From the IMG/VR virus record IMGVR_UViG_3300027811_000039, positions 21,149 through 85,148 of that record: DNA of 64,000 nucleotides. One strand, written 5' to 3'. The DNA is from a virus. Numbering within the stretch: the first letter of the stretch is position 1; each line of letters opens with the position of its first letter. The translations under genes and the position numbers were made by a program. The notes under the pieces were generated by a model, which did no database searches, was not told the DNA's origin, and was given only the letters and a program-made list of their open reading frames with translations. Shown here piece by piece: positions 1,304 to 53,951 of this stretch.

Positions 1304-1427
1304 TTTGCATTACCTCACCTTTTTTTATTTTCCTCAACCTCATATGCTTATTATACTCGATCTTGTTGACATTGTCCACATATCACCATCATTTTAAGTA
1401 CATCAATTTTTACCATTTTACTTCCTT

Positions 1428-1643
1428 CTAATACACTTTCATGATCCTGTATTTCTTATTGAACTTTGCAAGATTCCAGCCCTCACCCTGTTCATCAATC
1501 TTTAATGTTTGGTTATCCTCATTGAATCCCAATACTTGTTTGAGCCATATCAAATCATGGTGATTATTCTTGGCATCAATTTTAAACTCAATTTTCAACG
1601 TCTTGCGGTTTACTGCTAATTCCATCATTTTATTTTCCTCCAA
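1428..1643 (-). CDS. Hypothetical protein
   Basis: Short ORF co-oriented with the early-region genes. Confidence 0.5.
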   Translation of the reverse strand: MEENKMMELAVNRKTLKIEFKIDAKNNHHDLIWLKQVLGFNEDNQTLKIDEQGEGWNLAKFNKKYRIMKVY

Positions 1644-1774
1644 TTTTTAGCAACTTAGATTATAATTAAACATCCAATATTCAGCCGATCTATATATGGA
1701 TCTATTCCCCTTCACCCTGCTTGGGTGCTTAGTAACCCAAGCAGGGTGTGCAATCCTTTATAATTCATTTTCAT

Positions 1775-1969
1775 TTACATCTCCTCCAATGACCAATTTG
1801 CTTCTAATCCTTCTGGCTCCTTAACCATAACATCGGATCTATTCATTCCATGATATCTAGCAAATCCGAATGATTTTTTCTCAGCATCCTTCAAATCTTT
1901 TGCCTCGAAAGCTAATCTTGGATCATAAACTTCATCAAACATCAGAACGTGTAATATATATTTTTTCAT
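1775..1969 (-). CDS. Hypothetical protein
   Basis: ORF directly downstream of promoter-operator 2022 with a GAAGGGG RBS. Confidence 0.6.
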   Translation of the reverse strand: MKKYILHVLMFDEVYDPRLAFEAKDLKDAEKKSFGFARYHGMNRSDVMVKEPEGLEANWSLEEM

Positions 1970-2036
1970 TTTTAATTTCCCCCTTCAATTCCTGATCTCT
2001 TGCACTATTGTATCATCTAATGTAGACTTTGTCAAC

Positions 2037-2252
2037 TTATGCAGCTTTTTTTATCTTCATTTCCAATTTGATAATCATATCTTTTACATCTTCGTAATCT
2101 CTTTCGCATTGATTCACTCTTTCATCATACAACTCATAATCGTCATTTGCTTCAAGCGATTCCTTATATGCAGCCTTCATCTTACGTTCCAATCTACCAA
2201 GCTCATAATTCAAATCATCCAACCGTACCTTCATTGATTCTATCTTTTTCAT
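2037..2252 (-). CDS. Coiled-coil hypothetical protein
   Basis: Start reassigned to ATG 2252 (GGAGG RBS). The longer ORF-track start runs through the promoter leader. Confidence 0.6.
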   Translation of the reverse strand: MKKIESMKVRLDDLNYELGRLERKMKAAYKESLEANDDYELYDERVNQCERDYEDVKDMIIKLEMKIKKAA

Positions 2253-2286
2253 TTTAATTTCCTCCATTTTGTTTTTATATTTAGTT

Positions 2287-2333
2287 GATAAGCGATCCCA
2301 TGCCCATCGCGTTGTGGAACGTCCATCGCTCTC
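2287..2333 (-). ncRNA. Leader RNA motif, copy 3 (degenerate)
   Basis: GATGGACG-N14-GGGCATGGGATC closed by a GAGCGAT/ATCGCTT stem, just downstream of promoter 2364. Confidence 0.5.
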
Positions 2334-2538
2334 AACTCCATGCACTTATTGTACCATATTTTAGTAGACATTGTCCACACCAATTTATAGAAATTAATCT
2401 TTATCTAAATAATGAATATCTTCCATCAATTCATAGTCATCCTCATAGAATTCCTCAGCCTTGCTATACTCGATGAGGACATATAATTCTTCTATTCCCA
2501 TCTTAATTATTCTCCTTTTATTCTTAATTTATGGATCT

Positions 2539-2585
2539 GGAAGTGATCCCATGCCCCGGCACATTGCGTTGCGTCCATCACTTCC
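2539..2585 (-). ncRNA. Leader RNA motif, copy 1
   Basis: 35-bp core 2545-2579 is identical to 4045-4079 and is closed by a GGAAGTGAT/ATCACTTCC stem. Confidence 0.55.
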
Positions 2586-2658
2586 TCATCTCTATATTGC
2601 ATATAGTATACGTTTTTGTTGACTTTGTCTACAGTAACATATGGTTAATATTCATTAT

Positions 2659-3027
2659 TTAGGACAATGCTCTGAGCCATCTATCTTTCATGTCTTGGGT
2701 ATCTTTACCTATATCAAAAGACATCGTAACTTCAACCATTCCTTGGTTTGTCTCGAAACGCTTAGGTGCAAATGCTAGGCTGCTTCCAGCCTCAATAACT
2801 CCAATTGCTTTCATGGCATCAAGATCCCTCTTGGCCCAATTTCCAGCTTTCATGAATTCATAAACTTTACCATCTTCCGTGCATCCATATATTATTTTAA
2901 ATCCCATACACTTGCCAGTTGCCTTGTTAGCATCCTGCACATTATTTAAAGGCATTTCATAAAACTTATGGGGCATGAATCCCTCTGTCGTTTTAACCAT
3001 CCCAATAAAATTTTCACATTTTTTCAT
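2659..3027 (-). CDS. Hypothetical protein
   Basis: ORF with GGTTGA leader motif upstream. Confidence 0.6.
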   Translation of the reverse strand: MKKCENFIGMVKTTEGFMPHKFYEMPLNNVQDANKATGKCMGFKIIYGCTEDGKVYEFMKAGNWAKRDLDAMKAIGVIEAGSSLAFAPKRFETNQGMVEVTMSFDIGKDTQDMKDRWLRALS

Positions 3028-3112
3028 ATCTCATCAACCTCTTTCATTTTTTATATCCTTCAACCAACCTATGGCTCATTATACCATTTTTTTGTATACT
3101 TTGTCCACATTA

Positions 3113-3391
3113 TCAAACTTCCAATTCTTTCATTTTTTCTTTCAGATTTTCTAACTCCGCTATTTTATTTCTAATTTCCAATTCCATTTTTGATATTTCC
3201 AACGCTCTCGGGTGCATATCTTTTATTAACAACATCCCATGGTTTACATATAAAAGTGCTATATCACGCTTTTCATTGATGCTAGGATAATAATCATATA
3301 CCATTTGGATAATCTCAAATTCCGCATTAGTAAATACCTTATATTCTGGATTCATCTCTGCAACCAAATCTGTAAATTCAATATTAGTCAT
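3113..3391 (-). CDS. Hypothetical protein with C-terminal coiled coil
   Basis: ORF with strong GGAGGAGG RBS. Confidence 0.6.
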   Translation of the reverse strand: MTNIEFTDLVAEMNPEYKVFTNAEFEIIQMVYDYYPSINEKRDIALLYVNHGMLLIKDMHPRALEISKMELEIRNKIAELENLKEKMKELEV

Positions 3392-3406
3392 TTTTATTTC
3401 CTCCTC

Positions 3407-3664
3407 CTATAATCCATTTATAGCTAATATCATACCTTCATAATCCGGGCCATCCTGAGCTGATCCATATGATTTTTTCTGGTAGAAATTATCTTTAAGC
3501 CAACAAACCTTTTTTTGCACATCCCAGCTAATATCTGAATTTTCAACCATGATAGCAAATGCTTTATCAAAAGAATTCTTAGCAGCAACCTTATTCTCAT
3601 TTCTCATATGTCTACCAGAATTATTCAAGGCTCTCATAATTAATATCTCATTTTTATTCATCAT
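3407..3664 (-). CDS. Hypothetical protein
   Basis: ORF downstream of promoter-operator 3716. Confidence 0.6.
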   Translation of the reverse strand: MMNKNEILIMRALNNSGRHMRNENKVAAKNSFDKAFAIMVENSDISWDVQKKVCWLKDNFYQKKSYGSAQDGPDYEGMILAINGL

Positions 3665-3743
3665 CTTTTCCCCCTTATTCTTTTCCTCAACCTGTGCCTA
3701 TTGTACCATCAAACAGTAGACAATGTCTACTGTTTGATATAGA

Positions 3744-4010
3744 CTAAATTATTCCATATATTTTAGATTTGAAAACAAAGTAATCATCTTCAAATTCAAC
3801 CCAATCAAGTTCACCATTAAACTGTAAGCATTGATATCGGAAGAAAGCTATTATTGCACCAAGTGTCCATTCAGTTTCCTTTACCCATTGCATGAATGAC
3901 ATATCATCGGGCCTCATGCAACAAAGAGCTGTCATTTCATTTTCATGTTCCTTATTGTATGGAGTATTTTTCACCAGATCTATAAATTGTTGCTTTTTGC
4001 TTATCTTCAT
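3744..4010 (-). CDS. Hypothetical protein
   Basis: ORF with AAGGAG RBS, downstream of promoter 4115 and a leader RNA motif. Confidence 0.6.
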   Translation of the reverse strand: MKISKKQQFIDLVKNTPYNKEHENEMTALCCMRPDDMSFMQWVKETEWTLGAIIAFFRYQCLQFNGELDWVEFEDDYFVFKSKIYGII

Positions 4011-4039
4011 TTTGTTTTTCCTCCTTATTTATCAGAGAA

Positions 4040-4084
4040 ATCAAGATCCCATGCCCCGGCACATTGCGTTGCGTCCATCTCGAT
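4040..4084 (-). ncRNA. Leader RNA motif, copy 2
   Basis: Same 35-bp core as 2545-2579, closed by a different stem (ATCGAGAT/ATCTTGAT). Confidence 0.55.
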
Positions 4085-4321
4085 CTCCCTTATGGCTTTA
4101 TTATATCGTAACAAGTAGACATTGTCCACTATATATATTTACCAATTATTAGGCTTTTATCAACTCAAATCTTTCAATAGTTTTACAGGTAAGCTGCCGA
4201 ACAGCCCGCTCTTCTTCAGTTTCCAGCTTCCCCTTATATTCCATGCTGCCCTCATATTTATATGTCAAGATAGATCCATTTTTAAAATATGCAATCGCTT
4301 TAATCATCTTCATTTCCTCCT

Positions 4322-4528
4322 TTATTTAGAATTTAGAATTTCCAGATCCATATCCAATAACCATTGGGCCAAGATTTTAACATCATCCAATTCCTCAATT
4401 TTCAGCTTCCTTGTTTGTCCTATTTCAACGATCTGTTTCAGCCTATCGCCAATCTCATTAATCGTTTTCCCCATATTTTCTCTTTCAGTTTTCATCTTGC
4501 ATCTCTCCTTTAATTTTCTCTCGCTCAC
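4322..4528 (-). CDS. Hypothetical protein (true start probably internal)
   Basis: ORF downstream of promoter-operator 4550. Confidence 0.45.
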   Translation of the reverse strand: MSERKLKERCKMKTERENMGKTINEIGDRLKQIVEIGQTRKLKIEELDDVKILAQWLLDMDLEILNSK

Positions 4529-4592
4529 AATTTAATAATACCATATGTAGTGGACAATGTCCACAGTTGGCCAAGGGTAATGGATATTTATT

Positions 4593-4796
4593 TCAAATGT
4601 TTTCACCAAATGGATTATGGATCAACTTATATATATCAATCCAATTCTTGCAAGCAGAAACATCTAACTCAGCAATCTTGAGCACCATCATTTGATAATA
4701 TCCATCTATCTGCTCATAAGTGCTTAAACGTGTCAATGCTGCCCACGTTCCATAGGATACGCATCTTAATTCGTTCTTTGCTTCATCTTTTGTCAT
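4593..4796 (-). CDS. Hypothetical protein
   Basis: ORF in a tight operon with 4803-5607. Confidence 0.55.
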   Translation of the reverse strand: MTKDEAKNELRCVSYGTWAALTRLSTYEQIDGYYQMMVLKIAELDVSACKNWIDIYKLIHNPFGENI

Positions 4797-4802
4797 TTCA
4801 TT

Positions 4803-5201
4803 TCACCATTTCACTTCAATTAATTCAATGAGCATCCCATCATTCTGAGCTTTCTCAATCCATCCATCCGTGCTATCCCATGTATATGAATTCATGAATT
4901 CTTCTAAGGTCTGGTCACAATCGGATATGTTCATTAATTTTATCGCATACTCTTTTGGGATCGTGAATTCCCTACAGTAATACGCATATTCCTCACCATC
5001 ATTCCTGAATGGGTCATGAGCTGGGTATGCTGTGAGTGTTACCTTTTCCCCAACATATGATGGATTGGATGGTATTATCTGTTCCCTCGGAACTGGTTCA
5101 TCATCCATTTTATTTTCCTCTATCTTCAATCCACAGATCCTGCAATAATTCGCATTACTGCTATGTTCTTCGTTTTCACATCTAGGACATAAATAAATCA
5201 A
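4803..5201 (-). CDS. Zn-ribbon hypothetical protein
   Basis: N-terminal CPRC-x10-CRIC. Confidence 0.6.
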   Translation of the reverse strand: MIYLCPRCENEEHSSNANYCRICGLKIEENKMDDEPVPREQIIPSNPSYVGEKVTLTAYPAHDPFRNDGEEYAYYCREFTIPKEYAIKLMNISDCDQTLEEFMNSYTWDSTDGWIEKAQNDGMLIELIEVKW

Positions 5202-5607
5202 AGCAATTTCCCCCTCTTATATTCTCCCAAGGCCCCTTGTGCTTATGCTTCCATGATAGATCCCTGACCTGTTCACTACTATATTCAAAGTGCTTAATCA
5301 ATCCTCTTGCAGCATAGTATTTTTCCTTATCATAAAATCGCTGGTAGACTCCTTCAAATACAATGTTTTCCCCGATCTCAATCCAACCATGATCTATAGG
5401 AATCCCTCCAAGCACCATGCAGGTTCCATGAATAAGTTTGATTTTCGATTGGCTTAATGAATGTATAATATAATCCCAACTTTTATTAAAACACGCTTTA
5501 GGGTAAACTCTATTGGTAACATTGATTTTATATACAGGATCTACGGCTACCTGCAGATCCCTATATTCTTCTCTTGTTCTCTTTACTGCTTGGTACATAG
5601 TAGGCAT
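5182..5607 (-). CDS. Putative papain/transglutaminase-like fold protein
   Basis: ACFNKS...LIHG...DHGWIE gives a possible Cys-His-acid triad. Start reassigned to ATG 5607 after a GGGG RBS. Confidence 0.45.
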   Translation of the reverse strand: MPTMYQAVKRTREEYRDLQVAVDPVYKINVTNRVYPKACFNKSWDYIIHSLSQSKIKLIHGTCMVLGGIPIDHGWIEIGENIVFEGVYQRFYDKEKYYAARGLIKHFEYSSEQVRDLSWKHKHKGPWENIRGGNCFDLFMS

Positions 5608-5620
5608 TCCACTGTTCCCC

Positions 5621-5770
5621 CTATTCGCTGATTGCATCAATTCGGATGAAGTTATCTTTATCTTGAAGCTTAACAATGAATTTGTCCATAGCTAATCTGG
5701 TTTTGAATTCCTTCATTTTTCCAACCATTTGATCTTTTTTATTAACCTCAACCCATTTTACAGCTACCAT
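5621..5770 (-). CDS. 49-aa hypothetical protein (below the ORF-track cutoff)
   Basis: MVAVKWVEVNKKDQ...IDAISE read by hand, downstream of promoter 5833. Confidence 0.45.
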   Translation of the reverse strand: MVAVKWVEVNKKDQMVGKMKEFKTRLAMDKFIVKLQDKDNFIRIDAISE

Positions 5771-5853
5771 TTTATTTTCCTTCTTTCATTTTTTATTTCC
5801 TCAACCTCTTGGCATCATTATACCATTTTCTTGTATACTTTGTCCACACGTTT

Positions 5854-6081
5854 TTAATATCCTTCTGGCACTTCCTTAACATCCCAATCCCACGGAGCCA
5901 TATTGGTATATTTGCATATATAATCAAAAACATTGGATTCTTTAACCTTCGCAGGGTTTACCTTATATCCATTCCCTCTCAAATCTTTTATGAATCTAGC
6001 CTTTGTTTCGTACTCTTTATTCTCAATAAAAGATATCCCATTGCCATAACTCGATTTCACCAAAGCACTATATGTTTTCAT
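5854..6081 (-). CDS. Hypothetical protein
   Basis: ORF downstream of promoter-operator 6144 with an AAGGA RBS. Confidence 0.6.
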   Translation of the reverse strand: MKTYSALVKSSYGNGISFIENKEYETKARFIKDLRGNGYKVNPAKVKESNVFDYICKYTNMAPWDWDVKEVPEGY

Positions 6082-6174
6082 TTTTAGTTCCTTCTTTCTT
6101 TTTTAAAATCTCTCTCAACCGCATCTTCATAGTACCATCACATAGCGACATTGTCCACACCAAATTATAGAAGA

Positions 6175-6195
6175 AGGCCCGATTATCACGGGCCT
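6175..6195 (-). terminator. Hairpin terminator after the DUF932 gene
   Basis: AGGCCCG-N7-CGGGCCT followed by a pyrimidine-rich tract on the minus strand. Confidence 0.6.
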
Positions 6196-6200
6196 ATTTT

Positions 6201-7217
6201 CTATGCTGCAACAAGTTCGGTATAGATGAATGATTCCAACGCTATTCTTGTATCTTCATTCGTTAATACTTGTGCTGCTCTGGTAAAGCTATTAACAAGA
6301 TCATACACTGTAGCTTGCTTAGAATCTATTCTCTCTACTTGGAAGCACTCCTGTACTGTCACATTGAATTCCTTCGGCAGTGTGATCCCTTTTGTTCTTT
6401 TGAGTAGATCATTGATTGCTTTCATCGGATCAGTAATCTTCATATTTTTTGTTTGAGCGAATTGGGCCATCTGTTTTTCTCCTTGGCTTAAAACCTTTTC
6501 AAATGCCTGAGCAACCTTTAGCGGCATATCTTCTTTCTTAACTCCCATGTGTCTCTGCATGAATCTTTCGGTCTTTGCTTCCACGACTTGAAGGCCATTA
6601 GAACAAATCGTCCGGTATATAAATCCCCCAATTGATACGCTTCGTTTTCCAACCTCGCTATTTCTGATCTGCATACCAAACATTAATTCATCCGGTTGTC
6701 CATCCTTTAATGTCCCAGCGTTATAAGATATCTCAGGGAAAGTTATTCTCATATTGAATCCGTCAAATAACTCATCTGTATTGAATCTCTTGATCTCATG
6801 TTTCTGATCTCCCACAACATCGGCTACCATTTTCAAAACATCAGTATTATCAAAGATTGAATATTTATCAGTGAGTACAGATCTAACATATTTTTTACCA
6901 TCTTGCTCAACCGTTCTCAGCATCCAATTTTTTTCTTCATACTTGGCATTATTTATCCAATAATCCACATTCTGTTTCTGTAGATCCAAAGGGCATCTTT
7001 CCATGTAAGTTGTTGGGATAGCCAATTTGTGGAACAATTGATTTTTTCCCCAATCGGTAAAGCCATAAAATTCATTCCCTGTGATAAGTTCCCCATTCAC
7101 GCTATATCCTAACAATTTAGGGCTAACGAATACATCCTCGGTTCTAGTATCCTTCTCCTTGGACATTTCTAATAATTCATTAATTGTTTTAGTTGCCATT
7201 TTCTTTTCCCCCATCAA
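6201..7217 (-). CDS. DUF932-family protein
   Basis: R.VLTDKYSIFDN...FG+QIRNSEVG..SV.IGGFIYRTICSNGL and C-terminal T.YDL.N.FT pattern. Confidence 0.75.
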   Translation of the reverse strand: MMGEKKMATKTINELLEMSKEKDTRTEDVFVSPKLLGYSVNGELITGNEFYGFTDWGKNQLFHKLAIPTTYMERCPLDLQKQNVDYWINNAKYEEKNWMLRTVEQDGKKYVRSVLTDKYSIFDNTDVLKMVADVVGDQKHEIKRFNTDELFDGFNMRITFPEISYNAGTLKDGQPDELMFGMQIRNSEVGKRSVSIGGFIYRTICSNGLQVVEAKTERFMQRHMGVKKEDMPLKVAQAFEKVLSQGEKQMAQFAQTKNMKITDPMKAINDLLKRTKGITLPKEFNVTVQECFQVERIDSKQATVYDLVNSFTRAAQVLTNEDTRIALESFIYTELVAA

Positions 7218-7477
7218 TTTTTATTTTTTTCCTTCAACCTCTTGGCATCATTGTACTATACATCTGTAGACTTTGTCAACAGTAAACGACATTTATATTT
7301 AATATTTTTTCAAAGCGAATTTTTTACCATTCAATCCTGCGAATCTAATATCAATGAATATGATTTCTATAATTTTTCTCTTCTTCATTTTCTTTTCCCC
7401 CCAAATTTTTTATTTCCCTCAACCTCTTGGCTTTATTGTATATGTTTCTGTTTACATTGTCTACATGAAAATATATC

Positions 7478-7720
7478 CTATTCCCCATCTTTGAACTTTG
7501 TCAAAATCAATTCATCATTCCACATCTCATATGTTACTGAGCCGATACCATCTAGCTCTAAATTACCATTCTCATTAACGTATATATTTATCTCTCTCTG
7601 TAATCCTTCACCATTTATTTTGATCTTGGCCTTTCCTACTAATCTTTTCATGTCTTTCTCCTCCAAATTTACTTTTATATTTAAACTAGGAAGGTTGGGG
7701 CTTACCCAACCTTTTTCCAC
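7478..7720 (-). CDS. Hypothetical protein
   Basis: ORF overlapping the end of the preceding gene. Confidence 0.5.
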   Translation of the reverse strand: MEKGWVSPNLPSLNIKVNLEEKDMKRLVGKAKIKINGEGLQREINIYVNENGNLELDGIGSVTYEMWNDELILTKFKDGE

Positions 7721-8163
7721 ATTAGGTATTCAACGATGCAGGTTATGGTTCTGAATGATACGTTATATTCTTTAGCCAAGTGTGATTTACGCATTCCAGC
7801 TTTAAACTTTCCACGGATTTCTATGACTTGCTCTGGGCTTAATTTTGGTTTAAATTTATCGGTTCTCTCAACCTTTTGAACATTTTCAATCTTCTTAGCT
7901 TTCTTCGCCTTTTTTATCTTCTCTGGCATCATGATAAATTCGATCATCTTATTTAGTTCTTCATCTAATATTTTGCTTTCAATTTCAGATTCTTCGGTAA
8001 TCTTTTCACCAAGCTCATACCATCTTTTAATAGTTGATTCTGTGATTTGTTTTTCTTTTCCCGATTCAACCTCAGTAGCAATGATCTCGCCATTCACCTT
8101 ATGTTCTACTATGAATTCTTTACCATTTCTTTTATTAATTGCATTATATTTCATTTTCATCAA
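7702..8163 (-). CDS. Protein with C-terminal helix-turn-helix
   Basis: KLSPEQVIEIR...KSHLAKEYNVSFRTITCI. Confidence 0.6.
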   Translation of the reverse strand: MMKMKYNAINKRNGKEFIVEHKVNGEIIATEVESGKEKQITESTIKRWYELGEKITEESEIESKILDEELNKMIEFIMMPEKIKKAKKAKKIENVQKVERTDKFKPKLSPEQVIEIRGKFKAGMRKSHLAKEYNVSFRTITCIVEYLMWKKVG

Positions 8164-8467
8164 TCTCCTTTTATATTTAATTTGCTCAACCTCTTATTTA
8201 CATAGTACCATTTGCAGACATTGTCTACAACGCCCAATTATTTCCATTTTATTATTCAATAACCTCATAAAATGAAATGAAGGACATTTTGCTAAGCGTC
8301 ATTTTCCTACCAGTTTCCTTATTTATCAAGGTATAGATCCATCCAGTTTCAGGTGTCCAACCTTCACGGTAAAAATATTCAACCATATTAGATTTATCAA
8401 TGCACGATTTTTCCATTTCTATTTCCTCCAATTTTACTTTTATATTCAGAATGGGGAAGGAGATTTT

Positions 8468-8773
8468 TTACATCTCCTGCAACCATCTCGCATTATCAAA
8501 ATCTAGCAGCCCACCAGCATCTAGTATTTCTTGGAGTGCCTTTTTCCCTCCCATTGGGGTATACGGTGCATCAATCATTGGTCTGCCCATTGCTCTTTTT
8601 AGGAAATTGATTGGGGCCAGATCTGCAGCGAAAGCGAAATATCCCAGCCCTTCCACATGGAAAGCATATCCTTTATTCATTTCAATATAACCTCTAGCTG
8701 TTCCGAATTTTTTACCCTCAATCTTTACTATTTTCAACTTGGCGTTAATTTCTAATGTTGTCATTTCAACCAC
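8468..8773 (-). CDS. Hypothetical protein
   Basis: ORF downstream of promoter-operator 8821. Confidence 0.55.
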   Translation of the reverse strand: MVEMTTLEINAKLKIVKIEGKKFGTARGYIEMNKGYAFHVEGLGYFAFAADLAPINFLKRAMGRPMIDAPYTPMGGKKALQEILDAGGLLDFDNARWLQEM

Positions 8774-8877
8774 TCCTTTTTTTATCTCTCAACCTTATGT
8801 GTTTATAGTACCATTTTTATGTAGACTTTGTCAACAATTAATTTATCAGGAAGGGGAGTTTCCTCCCCATGTTTTAT

Positions 8878-9072
8878 CTAATTTGCATACTTGTGAATCA
8901 CACTCAATAACTCACAATATTCCCCGCCATGAAGTTTATATAATCTGCTTTTATATACGGCCTCCCAGTTACCAGTATCCTTAGCATCCTGAATTCTTTT
9001 AACATCTGCTTGTGTCGTATAACTTTTATCATAAGATCTTCTTTTTTTAATCTCATCCAATATTATTTTCAT
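8878..9072 (-). CDS. Hypothetical protein
   Basis: ORF downstream of promoter-operator 9131. Confidence 0.55.
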   Translation of the reverse strand: MKIILDEIKKRRSYDKSYTTQADVKRIQDAKDTGNWEAVYKSRLYKLHGGEYCELLSVIHKYAN

Positions 9073-9284
9073 TTCATTTTCCTCATTTCATTTTTTAAAT
9101 TCTCCCGGCTCATTTATAATACCACACCATGTAGACATTGTCCACATTTTATTCAAACTCAATCCTTAAATTTGTATATCCAAGGTGCATATAAACTGAT
9201 CGCTTATGATTTACCTTGCTCCTAGTACAATACATACATTTTCCATCTTTTCCGTCCAAATCTGTAAAATATAAAATAAACATT

Positions 9285-9512
9285 TCAGTTCCCCTTCGCT
9301 CTTAATATAGGTGCCATAGATCCTTTGCCCATTGGGTAGATGCACTCCATGTTGTCCCAGTTAGTAATCCTACGACTCGATGTAGAATCCTGCCCAATTC
9401 TTTTTATCGTAATGGATTTATCAGTTCTCCTAACAACCTCATAAACCCAAATGCATTCATAATCGCAAACTGATCTGCATGAATATTCTTGCCCAACTTC
9501 AAATCTTTGCAT
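9285..9512 (-). CDS. Hypothetical protein
   Basis: ORF coupled to 9499-9747. Confidence 0.6.
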   Translation of the reverse strand: MQRFEVGQEYSCRSVCDYECIWVYEVVRRTDKSITIKRIGQDSTSSRRITNWDNMECIYPMGKGSMAPILRAKGN

Positions 9513-9747
9513 TTTTCATTACCTCCATATATTCTTGATAATCATTATTTTGTAAATCCTCAATGGTTTGATATTCCTCTTGCCCTTCTTTCAACATAAT
9601 GCTAATGGTATCAATATTATTCATCTTAACTATTCTCTCATACGCTGCCAACCAACTATATTCATTAGCTATCAATGTAAAATTATATCCTCTTTCTTCC
9701 AACCACGCTTTGTATTCTTGTTCTTCTTCATAATTCATCCTCAACAT
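9499..9747 (-). CDS. Hypothetical protein
   Basis: ORF downstream of promoter-operator 9793 with an AAGGAG RBS. Confidence 0.55.
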   Translation of the reverse strand: MLRMNYEEEQEYKAWLEERGYNFTLIANEYSWLAAYERIVKMNNIDTISIMLKEGQEEYQTIEDLQNNDYQEYMEVMKNAKI

Positions 9748-9816
9748 CTCCTTTTATTTTTCTCAACCCCTATGCTCTATTATAACGTATTTGCAGACAT
9801 TGTCCACATAAATATT

Positions 9817-10639: not shown

Positions 10640-10933
10640 CTATTCCCCTTTAACTATTTCCGTGAAGTCACTCCAATCCTCTACCTTAAATGCTCTTATA
10701 TCCCTAACTGACTTCTTGAACCAATCTATTTTTTGCAATTTATTTATCGCTTTATATACATTCGTTAAATTATTCTGGTCACTAGAAATATACAGACTCC
10801 CTTGTGTCCATGTAAATCCAATCGCCTCTAATTCTTGTCTCACTTCAAGATAGGCATTGCCATATGATTCACCATAATGTTTTTTTAATTCGTCTGTTTT
10901 CATATCAAATGCTATCGCATACAATAGCCTCAA
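10640..10933 (-). CDS. vapD: VapD-family (Cas2-like fold) ribonuclease
   Basis: YAIAFD...Y..AY.E+R..L...GF...QGSLY...[20 protein letters not shown]. Confidence 0.85.
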
Positions 10934-11011
10934 CCTCCTTGAGCATTATTTTCTTAATTCAAATGTACCATTTATTGTTTACTATGTCAACAGGATATTA
11001 TTGCCACGCAG

Positions 11012-11401
11012 CTATTCAATATCTTCTGCCCAGCTATCTATCTTTTCAAATGCCAGAATTTTTTCGTCATCAAATCCAGCACCTTCCAATAATCTATATT
11101 CACCTATGATCTCTTGCCCGAACTGCCCCAATATTGCTTGTAAGCTGAATGTCCGTGCTATCCTGCCCCTACCATCCCCCACCTCGGATAACTTTACCCC
11201 TCGCTTTGTTACCTTCACATAAAACCGTTTCTTATCCTTAGAGAAGCCCACATTAATTCTGATCTCTTCCCTATCTGCTTCATCTAGATCCTTTATCAGC
11301 CTAAGCACGACATACCCCGGGAGGTAGCCGATCTTTTTCCTAAGCTTTACCACATCCAAATGCTTCGCCCATGTTATTAATTCTTTGGTGTATGGCTCCA
11401 T
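11012..11401 (-). CDS. Hypothetical protein
   Basis: 129-aa ORF. No family recognised. Confidence 0.55.
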   Translation of the reverse strand: MEPYTKELITWAKHLDVVKLRKKIGYLPGYVVLRLIKDLDEADREEIRINVGFSKDKKRFYVKVTKRGVKLSEVGDGRGRIARTFSLQAILGQFGQEIIGEYRLLEGAGFDDEKILAFEKIDSWAEDIE

Positions 11402-20021: not shown

Positions 20022-20522
20022 TTAATTACTTGATTCATACCAAACAAATGTAAAATCTGCTGGCGTTGCTCCACCAGAATTTGCAATTGTCATCAGGTAA
20101 CTAGTATTTGTCTTTAATATTATTTCAGGTGCCAATTGAACACTAGCAGTATTTGCAACAAGCTTTATGGTTTCAAGATTAATCGGTGCCGTTGCTCCAC
20201 CAGTGGAAGTAGTTGGTGCGGTATTAATCGCAGCAGTAACTGCCGTATCATTAATTCGATTTACGTTAGTTATGCCTGTAGCAAGTATCCCATCTGCCTT
20301 TATGCCATTTTCATTAAATATAAAACTCAACCCTGTACTTGCAGTCTGTAAATTCCTAGCTATTAGATGAACTATTTTCCCAGTGCTAGTTTTTAACTGA
20401 AAATTAGTATTGCCATTTGGAAATGATTGCTGATATTGCCACTTAAACATAGCACCAGCAAAAACAAATTGTGCGGTATAAGGAGTATCCCTAAATGGAG
20501 TTAGACTTAATCCACCTATCAT
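20022..20522 (-). CDS. Virion beta-sandwich protein, paralog B
   Basis: FR.TPY..QF.FAG.M..WQY...F..GNTN.QLKT...APEIILK..T.Y.M.I.NSG...DF.FVWYES.N. Confidence 0.65.
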   Translation of the reverse strand: MIGGLSLTPFRDTPYTAQFVFAGAMFKWQYQQSFPNGNTNFQLKTSTGKIVHLIARNLQTASTGLSFIFNENGIKADGILATGITNVNRINDTAVTAAINTAPTTSTGGATAPINLETIKLVANTASVQLAPEIILKTNTSYLMTIANSGGATPADFTFVWYESSN

Positions 20523-35670: not shown

Positions 35671-35717
35671 CTCCCCCCAAAGGATTGCCCTTGTCCCTCC
35701 CTTAATCTTTTCTTTTT

Positions 35718-37149: not shown

Positions 37150-37194
37150 ATCTGTTACCTCCTTCTATTTCTGTAATTAATAGCAATAAAAAAA

Positions 37195-37271
37195 CCCCCT
37201 AAAGTTGGCAACAAAAAAGCACGATCTTTACTGGGGGGGATTCAGTAATGGGCAATGCCCTAGATCGTGCT
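37195..37271 (-). other. Branched (three-way junction) structured intergenic element upstream of the capsid gene
   Basis: 10-bp outer stem 37218-27/37262-71 encloses two hairpins, followed by a U6 tract and a downstream GGGGG-U8. Confidence 0.55.
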
Positions 37272-37302
37272 AAATCTTAATTTTTTTTAAATCAAACTGA
37301 AT

Positions 37303-38609: not shown

Positions 38610-40073
38610 TTAGCTGACTGGCTTATCTACTGGTATCCTCCTAGAAAATCCACCAATTGAAAAACCATTGAACTTTTTTTCCTTGATCGAATCCCACATT
38701 TTGGCATCGTTGATCTTAACAGCCATTATCCAAGTGCCTTTTACGATATCTTGACCACCTAATTTAAAATCCAATGGTGCAAGATAACTTTCAACGACAT
38801 TTGCCTTGGCCTTGCCCTTGTGCGACTCTCCTACAACTCTGGAATCTTGCAAATAGATATGTGCAGTTTTTTCTATTTCCTCTGCACCTATTGTGTCATT
38901 CTGAGCATCGACACTTCCCGGTTCTAAAACTATGCCATACACAAGTTGCTTTTCTACATCAGCCTTGATTATATCTGCATAGATTTTTTCATCTTTTTCA
39001 TCACTAGGTTTTACTTTCTTCTTCGGCCTCTTCCAATCTGTAGAATCTATATGGACATCCCCTACGCTTGGCAACCCCTTATTAATTTCTTCAAGTTTAA
39101 TCTTGATTTGTTTAAGTTTTCTTCCAACCTCACCAGAATCATTAAACTTTCGGATTGCCATAGGGTGCGGTAAAACAAAATCAACATCTCCATCAAGAGC
39201 TTTTTTGGCCTTTTGCCCTAAAGCTACAATTACCTTTGGATTAGCTCTTTCTAATTCACCATCCAACCAATCTTTCCAATTACCAACTTCCACATCTGTT
39301 GGTTCCCTGACATTCCCCGATTTATCAACCAATAACATTGGTACAACATTAGTTAGAAATATATCATTACGGCCCAACCCTAATGGTTTGATATACATTT
39401 CATTAAAAGTTTCCCCACACGGCCCAACGAATGCTTCCCCTCGTAAATATTCAATCTTTCCCGGTGATGCTCCGACAAACGCTATTTCCGAATTTGCCCC
39501 ACCTGAACTCTTAACCATTGGAACTAATTCATCGCTTTTTTCTACTGGAGGAATTTCCTTTTTAAATGGACTGACCAATTTTTCATCTTCCCAAATCTTT
39601 CGCATTTTTGCATAGTATTTGTCAACATGATCTTTCATTCCCTGTATATCTTCTTTTGGAACATTTATTTGCGATGTTCCACCTTCTAGCATAGCCCCAT
39701 TTAAAATTGCTGCAGAAGTAAATATTGCTCTAGGTATCGCCATCAATTTTCCATCAATCACATTTGCAATTGGAAATTTATATCCACCAAAAGCTTCCTT
39801 GTTTTCATCATCAACCCATAAGAAACCTTGGCTAAATTTACCCCAATTTATATCTTCCTTATCCGTTCCCCTTGCCCACTCTCTGATATTTTTTTCCGCT
39901 TCTGATCCATCCCATTCCAATTCTCTATCAGCAATGGGCAAATCCTTGAACGGTGTTACTCCCTTTATGATTTCCTCTGGAACTGCTATTTCATGGATCT
40001 TGTCAAATGTTTCTTTTGGTATAAATTTTTTGAGAGTATCCAAGACTACATCTAAATACTCCTGAACTTGCAT
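38610..40073 (-). CDS. XkdF-like prohead protease-family protein with a central uracil-DNA-glycosylase-like domain
   Basis: C-terminal LVYG+VLEP..VD.Q.D...EEIEK.AH...H...VVESY.AP...GTW+M...W..+K...+NGFSIGG. Central FVG.SPG..E...G.AFVG..G...TNVV...P.VIVALG..A...HP. Confidence 0.8.
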   Translation of the reverse strand: MQVQEYLDVVLDTLKKFIPKETFDKIHEIAVPEEIIKGVTPFKDLPIADRELEWDGSEAEKNIREWARGTDKEDINWGKFSQGFLWVDDENKEAFGGYKFPIANVIDGKLMAIPRAIFTSAAILNGAMLEGGTSQINVPKEDIQGMKDHVDKYYAKMRKIWEDEKLVSPFKKEIPPVEKSDELVPMVKSSGGANSEIAFVGASPGKIEYLRGEAFVGPCGETFNEMYIKPLGLGRNDIFLTNVVPMLLVDKSGNVREPTDVEVGNWKDWLDGELERANPKVIVALGQKAKKALDGDVDFVLPHPMAIRKFNDSGEVGRKLKQIKIKLEEINKGLPSVGDVHIDSTDWKRPKKKVKPSDEKDEKIYADIIKADVEKQLVYGIVLEPGSVDAQNDTIGAEEIEKTAHIYLQDSRVVGESHKGKAKANVVESYLAPLDFKLGGQDIVKGTWIMAVKINDAKMWDSIKEKKFNGFSIGGFSRRIPVDKPVS

Positions 40074-40135
40074 TATCAATCTCTCCTTCCTCTCAAAAAT
40101 AATAAAAAGCACCGACTAAACCAGATACATTTTAA

Positions 40136-40429
40136 TTAAATCAATGCATCGGTAGTCGGTGCTACTCTTGAATCTGCAAGATGAACATACTTGCACTTAT
40201 TACATTTTATTTGAACTCTTCCATCAGCAAAACCTAAAAGGTGATTACACATCGGACACCTTATTGCTTCAAGATTTATAGTGCTCGGATGGATAATTGT
40301 TTTCCACCTATAATCCTCTAGGATTGCCCCATTACTCTCAAATATGACATTTGAAGAGTTACATACCACATTCTCTTTAAGCACTCTCATTTGCCCTTTA
40401 AAACTCCTCTCCTTGGAATTTTGTTTCAA
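40136..40429 (-). CDS. Com-like zinc-ribbon regulator (true start likely internal)
   Basis: IRCPMCNHLLG...+QIKC.KC. Confidence 0.55.
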   Translation of the reverse strand: MKQNSKERSFKGQMRVLKENVVCNSSNVIFESNGAILEDYRWKTIIHPSTINLEAIRCPMCNHLLGFADGRVQIKCNKCKYVHLADSRVAPTTDALI

Positions 40430-40435
40430 TGGACA

Positions 40436-40717
40436 TCATGCTTCTCTCTCCATTCTCTCCTTCTCTGCCCTTACCCTATTTGCCTCTCCTCCCCGCTTAT
40501 GTCTTTCCGATCTGTTATATTTCAAAATCGTAATAACTTCCTCATATAATGCAATATCAATTTCCTTCAAAAATTTCTGCAGATCTCTATGAACTGTACT
40601 TTTGCTTACTCCGAATTCTTCTGCAGTTACCCTAATTGTTGATTCATTTTCAACAATAAAATTTGCTTCCAATACTGCTCTCTGATGGATCAATTCTCGT
40701 AATGCTGAATTAATCAT
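40436..40717 (-). CDS. spoIIID: SpoIIID-like sporulation transcription factor
   Basis: T+R..A.EFGVSKSTVH+DL...L.EI...L..EV..IL.Y.+S.RH.RGGEA matches SpoIIID. Confidence 0.9.
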   Translation of the reverse strand: MINSALRELIHQRAVLEANFIVENESTIRVTAEEFGVSKSTVHRDLQKFLKEIDIALYEEVITILKYNRSERHKRGGEANRVRAEKERMEREA

Positions 40718-40761
40718 TAGAAATTGGCTCCCCCCTAATTCCTAAAAATATACCCATATCA

Positions 40762-41688
40762 TTAAATGAAAACAAGTCCCATTGCACATCTGCAATGAGG
40801 GTGAAGCGTCGGGGTTAATGATATATAACTTTTTCCCGAAAGTAACGGTGTCCCAAAGCTTTCCTCCAACCCAACTATTTTTCCATTAAGACTATTACAC
40901 CACGCACATAAACGATCATCTGGTGTCGTAATCCATTTCCTCCTAGTAGTTGCGGTATCAAGTAATCCTTGTTCTACCGACTGTAACCATAATGACTGTT
41001 GCCCCATATTTGCTGCCGTGATAGTCTCTGTTCTTGCGATATTCCTTGACCTATAGATAAGCAAATCCCGAGCATATGCCCTAGTTCTTTGCTCAATCAC
41101 TTTATCTGAAAGCTTTTGAATAATTAATGTTCTTCTCAAATTATTTACTGCCCTTGCTTGCCTCTCAGTAAGTCCAACTATTTTACTGATCTCTTTTGCC
41201 GATTCATAAGGATGCAACCCCTCAACAAAAGCATCATTTATTATTGTTCTTACCGCTTTCCTAGTTTCTTCCGTAATCTCAACAATTAACTTTCCAGTAT
41301 GATCCTTGATATAATCCAACGACTTTGGATTCAAAGTGTTAAAGCTTGCATTCATTCTGATTCCTCTAGGTAAAAAGGGTATTGATTTTTCCCCTGCACT
41401 ATCAAATACCGCTTTGTAAATTAGTGAAATCTTAACCATTTCAGATTCAAAAATTCCCCAAGGTATGGATTCCATAACACCATTAATAGATACGATTTCT
41501 AGAGCACTTCTCATTTCATTGATATTGATATTTCCCTTAGTCCTCTCAACTGCTTGCATGAATGCTTCTACCATCTGTGGTTGATAACCATCAGCCACAC
41601 CATGTATCATGTTCCATTCTTTATCACCATAAGAACCCTTATATATAATCTTTATTTTTGGTTCCCTAAATCTAAACATGGCAATCAT
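40762..41688 (-). CDS. Phage minor head morphogenesis protein (MuF-like)
   Basis: IARTETI.A.N.G...KWITT.DDR.C..C..LNG...P.LHP.CRC. Confidence 0.9.
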   Translation of the reverse strand: MIAMFRFREPKIKIIYKGSYGDKEWNMIHGVADGYQPQMVEAFMQAVERTKGNININEMRSALEIVSINGVMESIPWGIFESEMVKISLIYKAVFDSAGEKSIPFLPRGIRMNASFNTLNPKSLDYIKDHTGKLIVEITEETRKAVRTIINDAFVEGLHPYESAKEISKIVGLTERQARAVNNLRRTLIIQKLSDKVIEQRTRAYARDLLIYRSRNIARTETITAANMGQQSLWLQSVEQGLLDTATTRRKWITTPDDRLCAWCNSLNGKIVGLEESFGTPLLSGKSYISLTPTLHPHCRCAMGLVFI

Positions 41689-44576: not shown

Positions 44577-44733
44577 AATACTTCAACCCCACAACATCGT
44601 TCGCTTTATTATTTTAATTTGCGTACCTTCGCCCATCTTATTACGCAGCAGTTCCCCTAGCATCACTCATGACAATCCATGTAATTGCGGAAGCTACAAT
44701 GAATCGCACTAGAACCGCCCCCATTAATTCACA

Positions 44734-50634: not shown

Positions 50635-51710
50635 ACAAAACTAGTCCAATCATCCCATGTTATAACTTCATTCTTGGCAATATCCCTATTCACTCTCTTA
50701 CCGATCATTTGACCCATATAAAGAGGTGACACCCCAGTTCCCGGCCTCTTTGCACATAACATATCTTTGGTGATCACTTCACCCTCCGATATATTACAAT
50801 CTGCAACGATACTCGTTAAATACAAACATTTCATGGATAAATCTTCGATTGAAGGTTTTAATGCTTTTTCACCCATCACCAACTCAGCCTGTCTAATGTT
50901 CTTTACCCACTTCCTAAACTCAATCGGATCTAGTGCTTTGCTGTGATGATGCCCAACTGTATCCCTATTCATTGTCATCCTTTTTTCCATCAATTCTGCA
51001 CCCAACGCAACTGCCATTACATCGACTTTTGCATCTCTTGAATCTGCAGAATATCCAACTGGAATCCCTAACATCTCTTTTAAATATGGGATGCTGTTTA
51101 GATTTATTTTCTCTACCGAACTCGCATGGCTGCAATAAACCAACATGACCTCTGTTGCTCCATGCTTTTCAAGGAACTCCAATATCTGAACAACCTCACC
51201 CATGATTGCTGGCCCCAAATCAATCTGAATCGGCTTGCCTGTCTTTGCGACTGCTTCAAGTAATGGGTAATTCCTAAGATCCCATGAACCTATTTTATAA
51301 GCAGAAACATTAGCGTCTTCTGCCCATTGAACACTTCGCAACGAATCCACCGACAAATAAAAAGTTATCCCGATACTTTTTGCATATCTGGACAACTCTA
51401 TCAATTCCAATGGGCTAAATTGATGTTTCTTTAACATTTCAAACATATTTTCTTCTTGAATCCCACTAGAAGTCTCATATCTATATTTTACCGATTTATC
51501 CGACATAAAACCTTCACAATCAATAGTCTGAAACTTTACAGCATTTGCTTCTGCAACTTTTGCCTCATAGATCAATTCCTTTGCTGTCTCTAGACATCCA
51601 CAAGCCGTCACTCCTGTCTCAACAACAATATAAATTGGGTTCCCTTTTCCTATTTCATTTCCCCCAATATTAAAATGCGACCTGAAATTACTTCTCAGCT
51701 TCATTTTCAT
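50631..51710 (-). CDS. N-acetylneuraminate-synthase family with SAF domain, divergent copy 1
   Basis: AVKFQT...YKIGS.D..NYPL...GYS.D...EKR.T....G.HH...KRPG.G+.P. Several canonical NeuB residues differ (NHNG is TACG, SDH is SAD). Confidence 0.85.
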   Translation of the reverse strand: MKMKLRSNFRSHFNIGGNEIGKGNPIYIVVETGVTACGCLETAKELIYEAKVAEANAVKFQTIDCEGFMSDKSVKYRYETSSGIQEENMFEMLKKHQFSPLELIELSRYAKSIGITFYLSVDSLRSVQWAEDANVSAYKIGSWDLRNYPLLEAVAKTGKPIQIDLGPAIMGEVVQILEFLEKHGATEVMLVYCSHASSVEKINLNSIPYLKEMLGIPVGYSADSRDAKVDVMAVALGAELMEKRMTMNRDTVGHHHSKALDPIEFRKWVKNIRQAELVMGEKALKPSIEDLSMKCLYLTSIVADCNISEGEVITKDMLCAKRPGTGVSPLYMGQMIGKRVNRDIAKNEVITWDDWTSFV

Positions 51711-52222
51711 TTTACCCCCAACTTCAATTCCGCAAGTTTATCAATTGTTCTCTTCTCTAATCTGCTAACATAAGACCTCGAAATACCTATTAACTCTGCA
51801 ATTCTCTCTTGCTTTAATTCATAGTAAATTGCATAGGTAAAAATATCCCTTTGCCTCTGATTCAAAGAATTCAACACACCTCTAATTGCAATTATGTCCA
51901 GAACATTGTCATATTCAAGATGTTTTGAATCTGAAATTGATTCATTTAGATATTCTTTCAACTCTCTAGAAACATTCTTTCTTCTTAATGCCATTTTTAT
52001 CTCATTTTCCATACACTTAACTGCATATGTCGAAAACTTAGTTCCTTTATCTGGATTAAATGTTATTCCTGCTTTACATAAAGCATATGAAAACATAGAA
52101 AAAATTTCATCATAGTTATATGGGTACTCTATAGTACATTTATTTGACCACTTGTTAGCCATATATCTCGCCAGATTTAAGTTATCTTCCACCAATCCCC
52201 TTTGCTCTTCATTTAATTTCAT
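51707..52222 (-). CDS. Sigma-70 family factor, SigK-like region 4
   Basis: FNPDKGTKFSTYAVKCMENEI and IAELIGISRSYVSRLEKR. Confidence 0.85.
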   Translation of the reverse strand: MKLNEEQRGLVEDNLNLARYMANKWSNKCTIEYPYNYDEIFSMFSYALCKAGITFNPDKGTKFSTYAVKCMENEIKMALRRKNVSRELKEYLNESISDSKHLEYDNVLDIIAIRGVLNSLNQRQRDIFTYAIYYELKQERIAELIGISRSYVSRLEKRTIDKLAELKLGVK

Positions 52223-52253: not shown

Positions 52254-52844
52254 TCAAGAAACGTGTTCTATTTCACTCGACTTCCTATTGAATTTCGCAA
52301 GTTTGTCAATGATTCTTTTTTCCAATCTACTAATATACGATTGCGATATTTTCAATTTGTCTGCTATGACTTTTTGCGATTCTTTATGGAAATAACGCAT
52401 AGTTATGATTTTCAATTCACGTTCTTTCAATATCTTTATCGCATCTTTAGCACACATTAAATCTAGTATCGCATCATATTGCAAATGATCATTATTGCTA
52501 ATGAACTCCTCTAACTCAACCGTATTCCCATCCGAATCCTCTGACATAATTCCATTTAGATATAGATCTGGCCCATTTCTCAACTGATTACCTTTTTTCC
52601 TGAAAGCCATTTTTATCTCATTCTCCATACATCTAGCAGCATAAGTTGCGAATTTAGCACCAGCTAAATTATCTGGATCAAAACTTCTTGCAGCTTTACA
52701 TAATGCAAATGAGAACATCGAAAAAATATCATCATGATCGAAATTCTGGACTCCACATTTCACCCATTTATGTGCCATATATCTAGCCAAATTTATATTG
52801 TCCTCAACTAATTTCCTTTGTTCTTCATTCATAATCATTTCCAT
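52254..52844 (-). CDS. Sigma-70 family factor, SigE-like region 4
   Basis: KFATYAARCMENEI and SQK.IAD.L.ISQSYISRLEKRII. Confidence 0.88.
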   Translation of the reverse strand: MEMIMNEEQRKLVEDNINLARYMAHKWVKCGVQNFDHDDIFSMFSFALCKAARSFDPDNLAGAKFATYAARCMENEIKMAFRKKGNQLRNGPDLYLNGIMSEDSDGNTVELEEFISNNDHLQYDAILDLMCAKDAIKILKERELKIITMRYFHKESQKVIADKLKISQSYISRLEKRIIDKLAKFNRKSSEIEHVS

Positions 52845-52889
52845 TTGCCTTCCCCCTCACAAGAAAACAAAAAAACGACTTTCGCCGTT

Positions 52890-53951
52890 TTACCTTGACG
52901 CTTCTCCCAACGCCATTATTATTAACTTTTGTTCATACTCACTCATGCTCGGATACAATGGAATGGTCAATAGGTATTTCCAGATCCTTTCCGCTATCGG
53001 TGTGGCTCCCGCCATATCATAGAAACTTTGGAGTGTTACTGGCCTGTAATGGATTTGAGTATTAATTTTGTATTCCTTCAACTTTTCGATAAACCTATCA
53101 CGATGTTGGGTTAATATTATATAAATGTGCCTTGCATTAGTCCTATTCTGCTCCTGCACAATTTTAGCAATATCTAATTCATCTAGAGCTTTGTCATAAA
53201 CACTAGATAATCTCTGTCTCGCCAAAACCAATTCTGGAATCCTTTTTATCTGGTTTAAACATAACCCAGCCTGAATATCTGACATTCTGTAATTATATCC
53301 AAGGAATATGGTATCCCCGTTTTCCCTTCCATGATTCCTGAATGCTTTCATGATCCTATAATTCTCTTCGCTGTTTGTGGTTATTATTCCACCCTCACCA
53401 CTAGTGATTAATTTAGATGGATGTAAACTGAAACAACTTAGGTCAACAAGGGTTCCAACCTTTTTGCCCATATATGATGCACCCAACGAATGACAAGCAT
53501 CAGCAACTACCTTTAGGCAATATCTTTTCGCTATACCATTGATCCATTCATAATCTACTGGTTGCCCTGCGAAATCTACTGGGATAATTGCTTTGGTTTT
53601 ATATGTGATCTTCCTTTCGATATCTGCAGGATCAATCAATAATGTTCTTTCACATATATCCGCAAATACAGGAACCCCACCCATATATTTCACCACATTT
53701 GCTGTTGCAACGAATGTCATGGATGGAACAATCACTTCATCCCCCGGCCTGATCCCTATCGCCATCAATGCAGTATGGAGTGCTGCTGTCCCGCTTGATA
53801 CAGCTACCGCATATTTTGCACCAACCGATTTTCTGAATTCATCTTCAAATACTTCTATGATCTCACCCTGCGTAATGCTTTTTCCTCTAAGAACCCTTAT
53901 GACCTCTTCAATATCTTCATCCTCTAACTGGTGTTTTGCATAGGGAATCAA
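52890..53951 (-). CDS. pseC: UDP-4-amino-4,6-dideoxy-HexNAc aminotransferase (PseC-like)
   Basis: IPYAKH.+..EDIE.V..VL....ITQG...DACHSLG...SLHP.K.IT+GEGG...LGYNYRM+DIQ. TTG start at 53951 with AGGAGG RBS. Confidence 0.85.
   Translation of the reverse strand: MIPYAKHQLEDEDIEEVIRVLRGKSITQGEIIEVFEDEFRKSVGAKYAVAVSSGTAALHTALMAIGIRPGDEVIVPSMTFVATANVVKYMGGVPVFADICERTLLIDPADIERKITYKTKAIIPVDFAGQPVDYEWINGIAKRYCLKVVADACHSLGASYMGKKVGTLVDLSCFSLHPSKLITSGEGGIITTNSEENYRIMKAFRNHGRENGDTIFLGYNYRMSDIQAGLCLNQIKRIPELVLARQRLSSVYDKALDELDIAKIVQEQNRTNARHIYIILTQHRDRFIEKLKEYKINTQIHYRPVTLQSFYDMAGATPIAERIWKYLLTIPLYPSMSEYEQKLIIMALGEASR

Follow-up and report, generated by a model that had tools for sequence, protein, structure and literature searches.

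A SpoIIID-family gene in the head module of a soil phage

The DNA analyzed here, referred to as the window, is a 64-kb stretch comprising bases 21149-85148 of an 86,734-bp IMG/VR record that is rated 99% complete; the sequencing runs containing this phage are of soil-metagenome DNA, and its coverage in the source soil samples is high. On the minus strand, at 40436-40717, lies an ORF of 93 amino acids that begins with ATG and whose product carries a helix-turn-helix (HTH) and a C-terminal basic motif, with the signature EFGVSKSTVHRDL...RHKRGGEA. A strong ribosome binding site (RBS), GGGGGGAG, occurs 9 nt upstream of the start, within a 44-nt gap (40718-40761, minus strand) that follows the gene for a MuF-like minor head protein (40762-41688, minus strand; PF04233). 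An earlier note on this DNA had placed the ORF between the MuF gene and a prohead protease gene. That position is right, but a further small gene also occupies the interval, encoding a 97-aa Com-like zinc ribbon of the form CxxC...CxxC (40136-40429, minus strand). The protease gene beyond it (38610-40112, minus strand), whose likely true start is the ATG at 40072, specifies an XkdF-type prohead protease (PF14550) with a UDG-superfamily domain (PF03167).

The SpoIIID signature reported in the earlier note was confirmed. The PF12116 SpoIIID profile matches the product with 92.9 bits (E 1.3e-26), well above the family cut-off of 27, and aligns residues 8-87 with model positions 2-81 of 82. Further matches are to phrog_11726, "sporulation stage III protein D" (E 2.7e-22), and, by sequence, to B. 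subtilis SpoIIID in PDB entry 2L0K (E 1.2e-18). An AF2 model built from a 30-sequence alignment (pLDDT 89.5) contains five helices, and a Foldseek search with this model returned 2L0K as the sole significant PDB match (prob 1.00, TM 0.66); the modeled protein has the all-helical, HTH-containing fold of that SpoIIID-DNA structure. The regions through which SpoIIID binds DNA are the HTH recognition helix and a C-terminal basic region (PMC3789822 Fig. S3 legend), and both are present in the phage protein, wherein SKSTVHRD corresponds to SKSTVHKD of 2L0K and ERHKRGGEA to IRHLRGGEA. Assignment to the SpoIIID family is far beyond chance, and the profile scores, the fold and the dN/dS values given below rule out a chance ORF or a pseudogene.

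A phage-only lineage under purifying selection

An exhaustive HMMER search retrieved 2062 homologous clusters at E up to 0.001, compared with five matches from a word-indexed protein search, and among these clusters no homologue outside the focal clade exceeded ~53% identity. In a tree of 118 homologues and 83 columns, which are too few to fix deep placement, the window protein groups with seven relatives, all from soil viral contigs, in a phage-only clade (8 rows, SH-aLRT 97) on a long stem of 0.76, with tips of 0.2-0.7. This clade falls outside the Bacillaceae SpoIIID group (SH-aLRT 98), whose tips range from 0 to 0.12 and are mostly below 0.05, and the window protein accordingly does not branch with cellular SpoIIID. 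Scores against the TIGR02844 equivalog model, with its cut-off of 111.5 bits, are in keeping with this arrangement: the window protein reaches 81.7 bits and its clade relatives 86.5-90.7, the whole phage clade spanning 81.7-91. Four of five cellular controls scored 130-154 (Bacillus 152-154, Lachnospiraceae 138, Syntrophomonas 130) and the fifth, from Clostridium sp. CAG:448, scored 104; the homologues of phage CP51 and viral contig L036 scored 104-106.

Within the phage clade dN/dS is 0.06-0.33, and the segments VSKSTVHRD and ERH.RGG are invariant; the gene is under purifying selection. The protein is a member of the SpoIIID family and not a SpoIIID orthologue. Judged from these comparisons, it is a functional gene belonging to an old, fast-evolving phage lineage. 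Recent capture from a Bacillus host, also considered, was rejected because of the phage-only clade in the tree and the low TIGR02844 scores.

A Com-like zinc-ribbon partner and the setting in the head operon

The zinc-ribbon protein shows weak matches to phrog_13819 (gpCom) and phrog_6417 (translational regulator), and a match to PF10122 (E 0.006) that lies below threshold; its alignment across relatives contains 32 invariant columns and a conserved CxxC...CxxC core. In every member of the clade this gene adjoins the SpoIIID-like gene, and in some relatives its start overlaps the SpoIIID-like stop. At least eight related soil-phage contigs carry the SpoIIID-like gene in the head operon together with the Com-like gene, and the order portal-(MuF)-SpoIIID-zinc ribbon-protease is kept in all relatives, which derive from several JGI soil samples. 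Their portal and capsid proteins are ~90% identical to those of the window, whereas MuF, SpoIIID-like and zinc-ribbon proteins are only ~60% identical. One complete relative of 88 kb (L018:8633-10466) lacks MuF between the portal and SpoIIID-like genes; the latter begins only 24 nt after the portal gene, and the SpoIIID-like and zinc-ribbon pair and the rest of the head module are retained.

Megablast of 10 kb against phages gave no match, portal proteins of Arthrobacter phages and of a faecal contig, at 46-53% identity, were the best of the cultured matches, and no close prophage was found in 401 sampled Bacilli genomes, the best major-capsid match there being 47% identical. A distant prophage in a Bacilli genome, with a capsid ~46-47% and a portal 57% identical, has portal-MuF-protease in succession without the SpoIIID-like and zinc-ribbon genes, and the pair therefore looks like an insertion specific to the clade. 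A moron, as an independently expressed accessory cassette, would have both a promoter and a terminator of its own; a conserved terminator-like hairpin with a U-run lies on the 3' side of the pair, but no conserved promoter on its 5' side, and the pair is absent from the distant prophage. Comparison of the upstream regions of five relatives revealed no conserved promoter before the SpoIIID-like gene; a weak TTGTTT-17-TATATT match is present in the window only and is not kept in relatives, and the late region as a whole is depleted of matches to sigma-70-type promoters (43 versus an expected 69.8). No promoter was thus found for the SpoIIID-like gene alone, and it is most likely co-transcribed with the head genes. 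Members of the clade also share the fusion of the UDG-superfamily domain (PF03167) to the XkdF protease (PF14550), of which the distant Bacilli prophage matches the XkdF part only.

Such a location, directly after MuF and portal genes and with presumed late synthesis, could suggest that the protein has a virion-linked or non-transcriptional role, either traveling in the virion, alongside MuF and the genome, to serve as a pilot regulator in the next cell, or organizing DNA in the head. Eichenberger et al. 2004 (PMC517825) found many chromosomal sites that SpoIIID occupied without effect on transcription, and suggested an architectural role for it. We regard this proposal as very improbable: the 88-kb relative keeps the SpoIIID-like gene though MuF is absent there, the distant prophage has the same head module without the pair, and homologues in other phages are found among replication or regulatory genes rather than head genes.

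Hairpins and conserved non-coding elements of the late region

Following the zinc-ribbon gene is a 20-bp hairpin (40109-40162) with an adjoining U-run (40095-40108), both on the minus strand. The hairpin has a predicted dG of -32.7 kcal/mol and a z score of -6.7, with compensatory changes at 5 of its 20 pairs among six phages; the hairpin and U-run (40095-40162) span the zinc-ribbon stop codon and end a few nucleotides before the protease RBS. This structure is terminator- or attenuator-like. The zinc ribbon and hairpin together (40095-40429, minus strand) may constitute a terminator or attenuator, or else a Com-type translational switch that gates expression of the protease, scaffold and capsid.

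Other conserved elements were observed in the window, none of which, like the rest of the 64 kb, matched an Rfam family. A structured element at 37160-37300 (minus strand), located between a gene for a 128-aa protein and the major capsid gene and conserved in five related phages, contains a long hairpin, GCACGRTC...GAYCGTGC, whose loop includes a C7 run; a U-run comes next, followed by a G5 stretch for which the loop C7 is a possible pairing partner. It too is without an Rfam match. Upstream of the large-terminase gene, at 44590-44730 (minus strand), five related phages share strongly conserved non-coding blocks, TGGGGGCGGTTCTA ... GCTAGGGGGACTGCAGCG ... GGGCGAAGGTACGCA, which have no Rfam match and fold no better than shuffled sequences; possible interpretations are a pac site, a promoter read by the phage sigma factors and an RNA element. 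A further hairpin and U-run (52845-52891, minus strand) is situated directly 5' of the RBS of the first of two sigma factor genes. The recurrence of a hairpin followed by an RBS before the first sigma, protease and capsid genes hints that a long late transcription unit may be subject to antitermination or RNA processing.

Two sigma factors and the mother-cell set

The two adjacent sigma factor genes, separated by 31 nt, are embedded among virion-glycosylation genes on the minus strand (sigma 1, 52254-52844; sigma 2, 51707-52222). The best NCBIfam matches of both products are SigK and SigE, at scores far below the equivalog cut-offs. In alignment with the Bacillus wiedmannii proteins, region 4.2 of sigma 1 reads KISQSYISR and that of sigma 2 GISRSYVSR, compared with GISQSYISR in SigE and GISRSYVSR in SigK; the Q or R residue at this site sets the choice of -35 element by SigE versus SigK (PMC3789822). 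Sigma 1 is in this respect of SigE type and sigma 2 of SigK type. Both phage sigma factors begin at region 2 and have no counterpart of the N-terminal 40-60 residues of the host proteins, and hence no pro-sequence. From their spacing the two genes may be co-expressed rather than expressed sequentially.

In Bacillota the mother-cell cascade proceeds from sigmaE to SpoIIID (with GerR), then to sigmaK and finally GerE (Eichenberger et al. 2004, PMC517825). The earlier note had proposed that the SpoIIID homologue completes a SigE-SpoIIID-SigK set, and at the family level such a set exists: all three members are present, with the distinguishing Q and R residues. Wiring of the cascade is not visible, since no canonical SigE or SigK promoter precedes the spoIIID-like or the sigK-like gene. 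More generally, no match to ATA/AC-N(15-18)-CATAnnnT was found within 120 nt upstream of any late gene, and the 11 minus-strand matches compare with 14.7 expected; this consensus is the canonical one, and the phage sigma factors may read one that has diverged. The broader claim that the phage carries mimics of the entire mother-cell cascade could not be sustained. GerE is absent (PF00196 was not found anywhere in the 86.7-kb genome), pro-sequences are lacking, all three proteins score far below their equivalog cut-offs, the SpoIIID-like protein belongs to a fast-evolving phage-only clade, canonical SigE and SigK promoters are missing, and SpoIIID boxes, as described below, occur at the frequency of chance.

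Candidate targets and the early operator

The box GGACAAG occurs six times in the window compared with 6.3 expected, RGACAAG is likewise at chance, and 29 other SpoIIID-positive viral loci contain 50 GGACAAG boxes against 39.5 +/- 16.8. The sole intergenic GGACAAG box of the window, at 35690-35696, is not conserved in relatives.

That no targets are visible in the phage genome is compatible with targets in the host, whereby the SpoIIID-like protein and the SigE- and SigK-type sigma factors would bind host SpoIIID boxes and mother-cell promoters, with the outcome that sporulation is blocked, hastened or reprogrammed, or that virions are made in the mother cell. The earlier note had conjectured that the phage could time virion production and glycosylation to sporulation or reprogram spore coat formation, ideas that are speculative. 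Host boxes could be bound, given how little the phage protein differs from host SpoIIID in recognition helix and basic motif, and the sigma factors bear the Q and R specificity residues of SigE and SigK. Precedents in the literature point the same way: SigF- and SigG-like phage sigma factors expressed in B. subtilis lowered spore yield (PMC9429907, PMC10294663), and a published list of sporulation genes that are enriched in phages infecting spore-formers includes spoIIID (Schwartz et al. 2023, PMC10294663). On the other hand, a protein encoded in the head operon without its own promoter is probably made minutes before lysis, and such late production along with head proteins fits poorly with a developmental program lasting hours. 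Membership in an old, fast-evolving phage clade that scores below every cellular TIGR02844 control is unlike what would be expected of a faithful mimic; in addition, GerE is absent and none of the 401 sampled Bacilli genomes contains a close prophage. Control of host sporulation by the phage protein is possible but unsupported, and we consider take-over of the host program unlikely, if still to be reckoned with.

A different set of prospective sites is found in the early region, where about 17 sigma-A promoters share a 15-bp operator, GT(G/T/A)GACA(A/T)(A/T)GTC.AC, placed over the -35 box. Within 1365-9807 of the window, a half-site of this operator, GGACAA(T), resembles a SpoIIID-type box. 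The SpoIIID-like protein might bind the operator as a repressor, silencing early genes once the head genes are expressed. Of the 17 sites associated with promoters, 9 have GGACAA(T) as the half-site on the -35 side and 15 have GACAA; the half-site fits RRACAR, the core of the B. subtilis SpoIIID box. It also matches the ACARK end of the C. difficile SpoIIID box, KRTAACARK (PMC5025042). The -35 hexamer TTGACA already supplies GACA, however, and the additional match therefore amounts to only 2-3 bases. Operator type and recognition helix are both kept in three relatives (G001, G002 and G004), a conservation that does not discriminate among candidate repressors. The two-fold symmetry of the operator (GTnGAC N3 GTCnAC) suggests a protein that binds as a dimer, unlike SpoIIID of B. 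subtilis, which binds as a monomer. Moreover, beyond the window the genome has two genes for HTH_3 proteins of XRE type (genome coordinates 20047-20208, minus strand, at the distal end of the early region, and 10892-11056, plus strand), and their products would be more ordinary candidates for repressors of the early regulon. Late shut-off of early genes by the SpoIIID-like protein strikes us as improbable.

SpoIIID-like genes in other phages

Phage homologues are catalogued as the PHROG family phrog_11726 and in the list of Schwartz et al. 2023 (PMC10294663), and annotated ones include Clostridium phage vB_CpeS-CP51 gp43 and Bacillus phage vB_BceM-HSE3 gp024; a 2025 review describes phage copies of SpoIIID as "not validated", none having been tested experimentally (PMC12713726). 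Association with sigma factor genes recurs among them. Among IMG/VR contigs outside the focal clade, an immediate neighbor of the SpoIIID-like gene is a sigma-70-family gene in two (L036, L043) and a region-4-only ORF in another (L042), and in a fourth (L035) a sigma gene lies 0.65 kb away; by comparison, at 80 cellular spoIIID loci no sigma gene occurs at a distance of up to 3 kb. Sigma70_r2 was detected in 6 of 15 further SpoIIID-positive phage records. Relative to the 13.4% of phage genomes that carry any sigma factor, a figure for all phages and not specifically for those of spore-formers (PMC9429907), the pairing is enriched. Several complete SpoIIID-positive phages, including two jumbo phages of 241 and 256 kb, have no detectable sigma factor, and the coupling is therefore not obligatory.

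Elsewhere the neighbors of SpoIIID-like genes encode RNR, a replisome organizer with a DnaB-like helicase, or YqaJ recombinase. These replication and early-gene surroundings make the head-operon position of the window gene unusual, and they fit a role for the family in phage regulation.

Several observations concern the wider set of homologues. In contigs L029, L030, L021 and L044 the SpoIIID gene either sits at an end of the contig or has genes for a histidine kinase and a response regulator next to it, and these four cluster with cellular SpoIIIDs in the tree; they are probably host spoIIID genes beside integrated elements, and the viral-contig set must be read as including some of these. 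A sigma-E annotation in HSE3 looks doubtful: gp017 (L007:304-912), labeled "RNA polymerase sigma-E factor precursor", gave no match to a Pfam sigma domain at E up to 0.001, and elsewhere the HSE3 genome shows just one weak sigma-like signal. Finally, the top scorers of the exhaustive HMMER search were four metagenomic proteins of 337-599 aa (P0006, P0007, P0009 and P0051) carrying 5-6 tandem SpoIIID-like HTH stretches, an architecture for which we found no published description.

Discussion

Within one 87-kb genome we find a compact set consisting of a SpoIIID-like factor, a SigE-type sigma factor and a SigK-type sigma factor. At stake is whether the sporulation regulators of phages steer host dormancy, or whether a ready-made circuit has been recruited for the timing of phage functions. 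The explanation we prefer, tentatively and at slightly less than an even chance, is that the SpoIIID-like protein is a late regulator of phage transcription that works with the phage's own sigma factors. It builds on features that are directly supported, namely family membership, fold, DNA-contact motifs, purifying selection, synteny and the recurrent linkage of SpoIIID-like with sigma genes. The protein would be a small DNA-binding transcription factor of the SpoIIID family, long resident in the phage lineage. With the gene for the Com-like zinc ribbon, its gene would make up a regulatory cassette of two genes that soil phages of one clade, 80-88 kb in size, carry as an insertion between MuF and protease. 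Co-transcription of the cassette with the portal and MuF genes would make the SpoIIID-like factor a late protein. It may then act on transcription by the phage SigE- and SigK-type sigma factors, which have no pro-sequences, activating or repressing a few promoters late in infection. This would resemble events in the mother cell, where SpoIIID modulates promoters that depend on SigE and SigK; the logic of that circuit may have been borrowed for the phage's own program, not for running sporulation of the host.

More elaborate arrangements of the same components can be envisioned. The three regulators, again with sigma factors devoid of pro-sequences, might constitute a self-contained SigE-SpoIIID-SigK feed-forward circuit that times the late and virion-glycosylation genes. 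Alternatively, the circuit might make those genes readable both by the phage sigma factors during lytic growth and by host SigE and SigK in the mother cell. In either form, the GGACAA-containing operators might in addition allow the SpoIIID-like protein to silence the 17 early promoters. We judge this group of proposals to be decidedly unlikely.

Capsid operons are usually treated as plain polycistronic units. The position of the SpoIIID-like gene in the head operon, its Com-like partner and the covarying hairpin point to regulation within the capsid operon of these phages.

The nearest known counterpart is SpoIIID of B. subtilis (2L0K), which also has 93 residues and the same fold (TM 0.66), with ~50% identity over the aligned residues. 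The recognition helices read SKSTVHRDL in the phage protein and SKSTVHKDL in B. subtilis, and the basic motifs RHKRGGEA and RHLRGGEA, respectively. The two differ in that the phage copy belongs to a fast-evolving phage-only clade below the equivalog cut-off, and its gene resides in a head operon rather than a chromosomal SigE-dependent unit, with no canonical SigE promoter or SpoIIID boxes nearby. Compared with the mother-cell cascade (PMC517825), the phage has homologues of three nodes and the Q and R residues that distinguish SigE from SigK, but is without pro-sequences, GerE and SigE or SigK consensus promoters at the spoIIID-like and sigK-like genes. It resembles the phages in which sporulation-like sigma factors have been described (SPO1 gp2.21, SP10 g120, Goe3 and others) in bearing its own copies of such factors. 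Schwartz et al. 2022 (PMC9429907) argue that the described factors are dispensable for basic lytic growth. The factors tested in that work were SigF- and SigG-like, whereas those of this phage are SigE- and SigK-like and are accompanied by a SpoIIID-like partner. Among phages with SpoIIID homologues, CP51 is similar in having a "sporulation sigma factor" 2.5 kb upstream of its SpoIIID-like gene. CP51 gp43 and HSE3 gp024 belong to the same family as the window protein and are only 36-38% identical to it, and genes for the catalogued homologues are located in early, regulatory or replication regions, in contrast to the head-morphogenesis operon of the window. What is unusual here is this head-operon location, the protein being otherwise another member of the catalogued phage SpoIIID homologues; unlike the catalogued phages, this one also pairs the gene with a Com-like zinc ribbon and carries both a Q-type and an R-type sigma factor.
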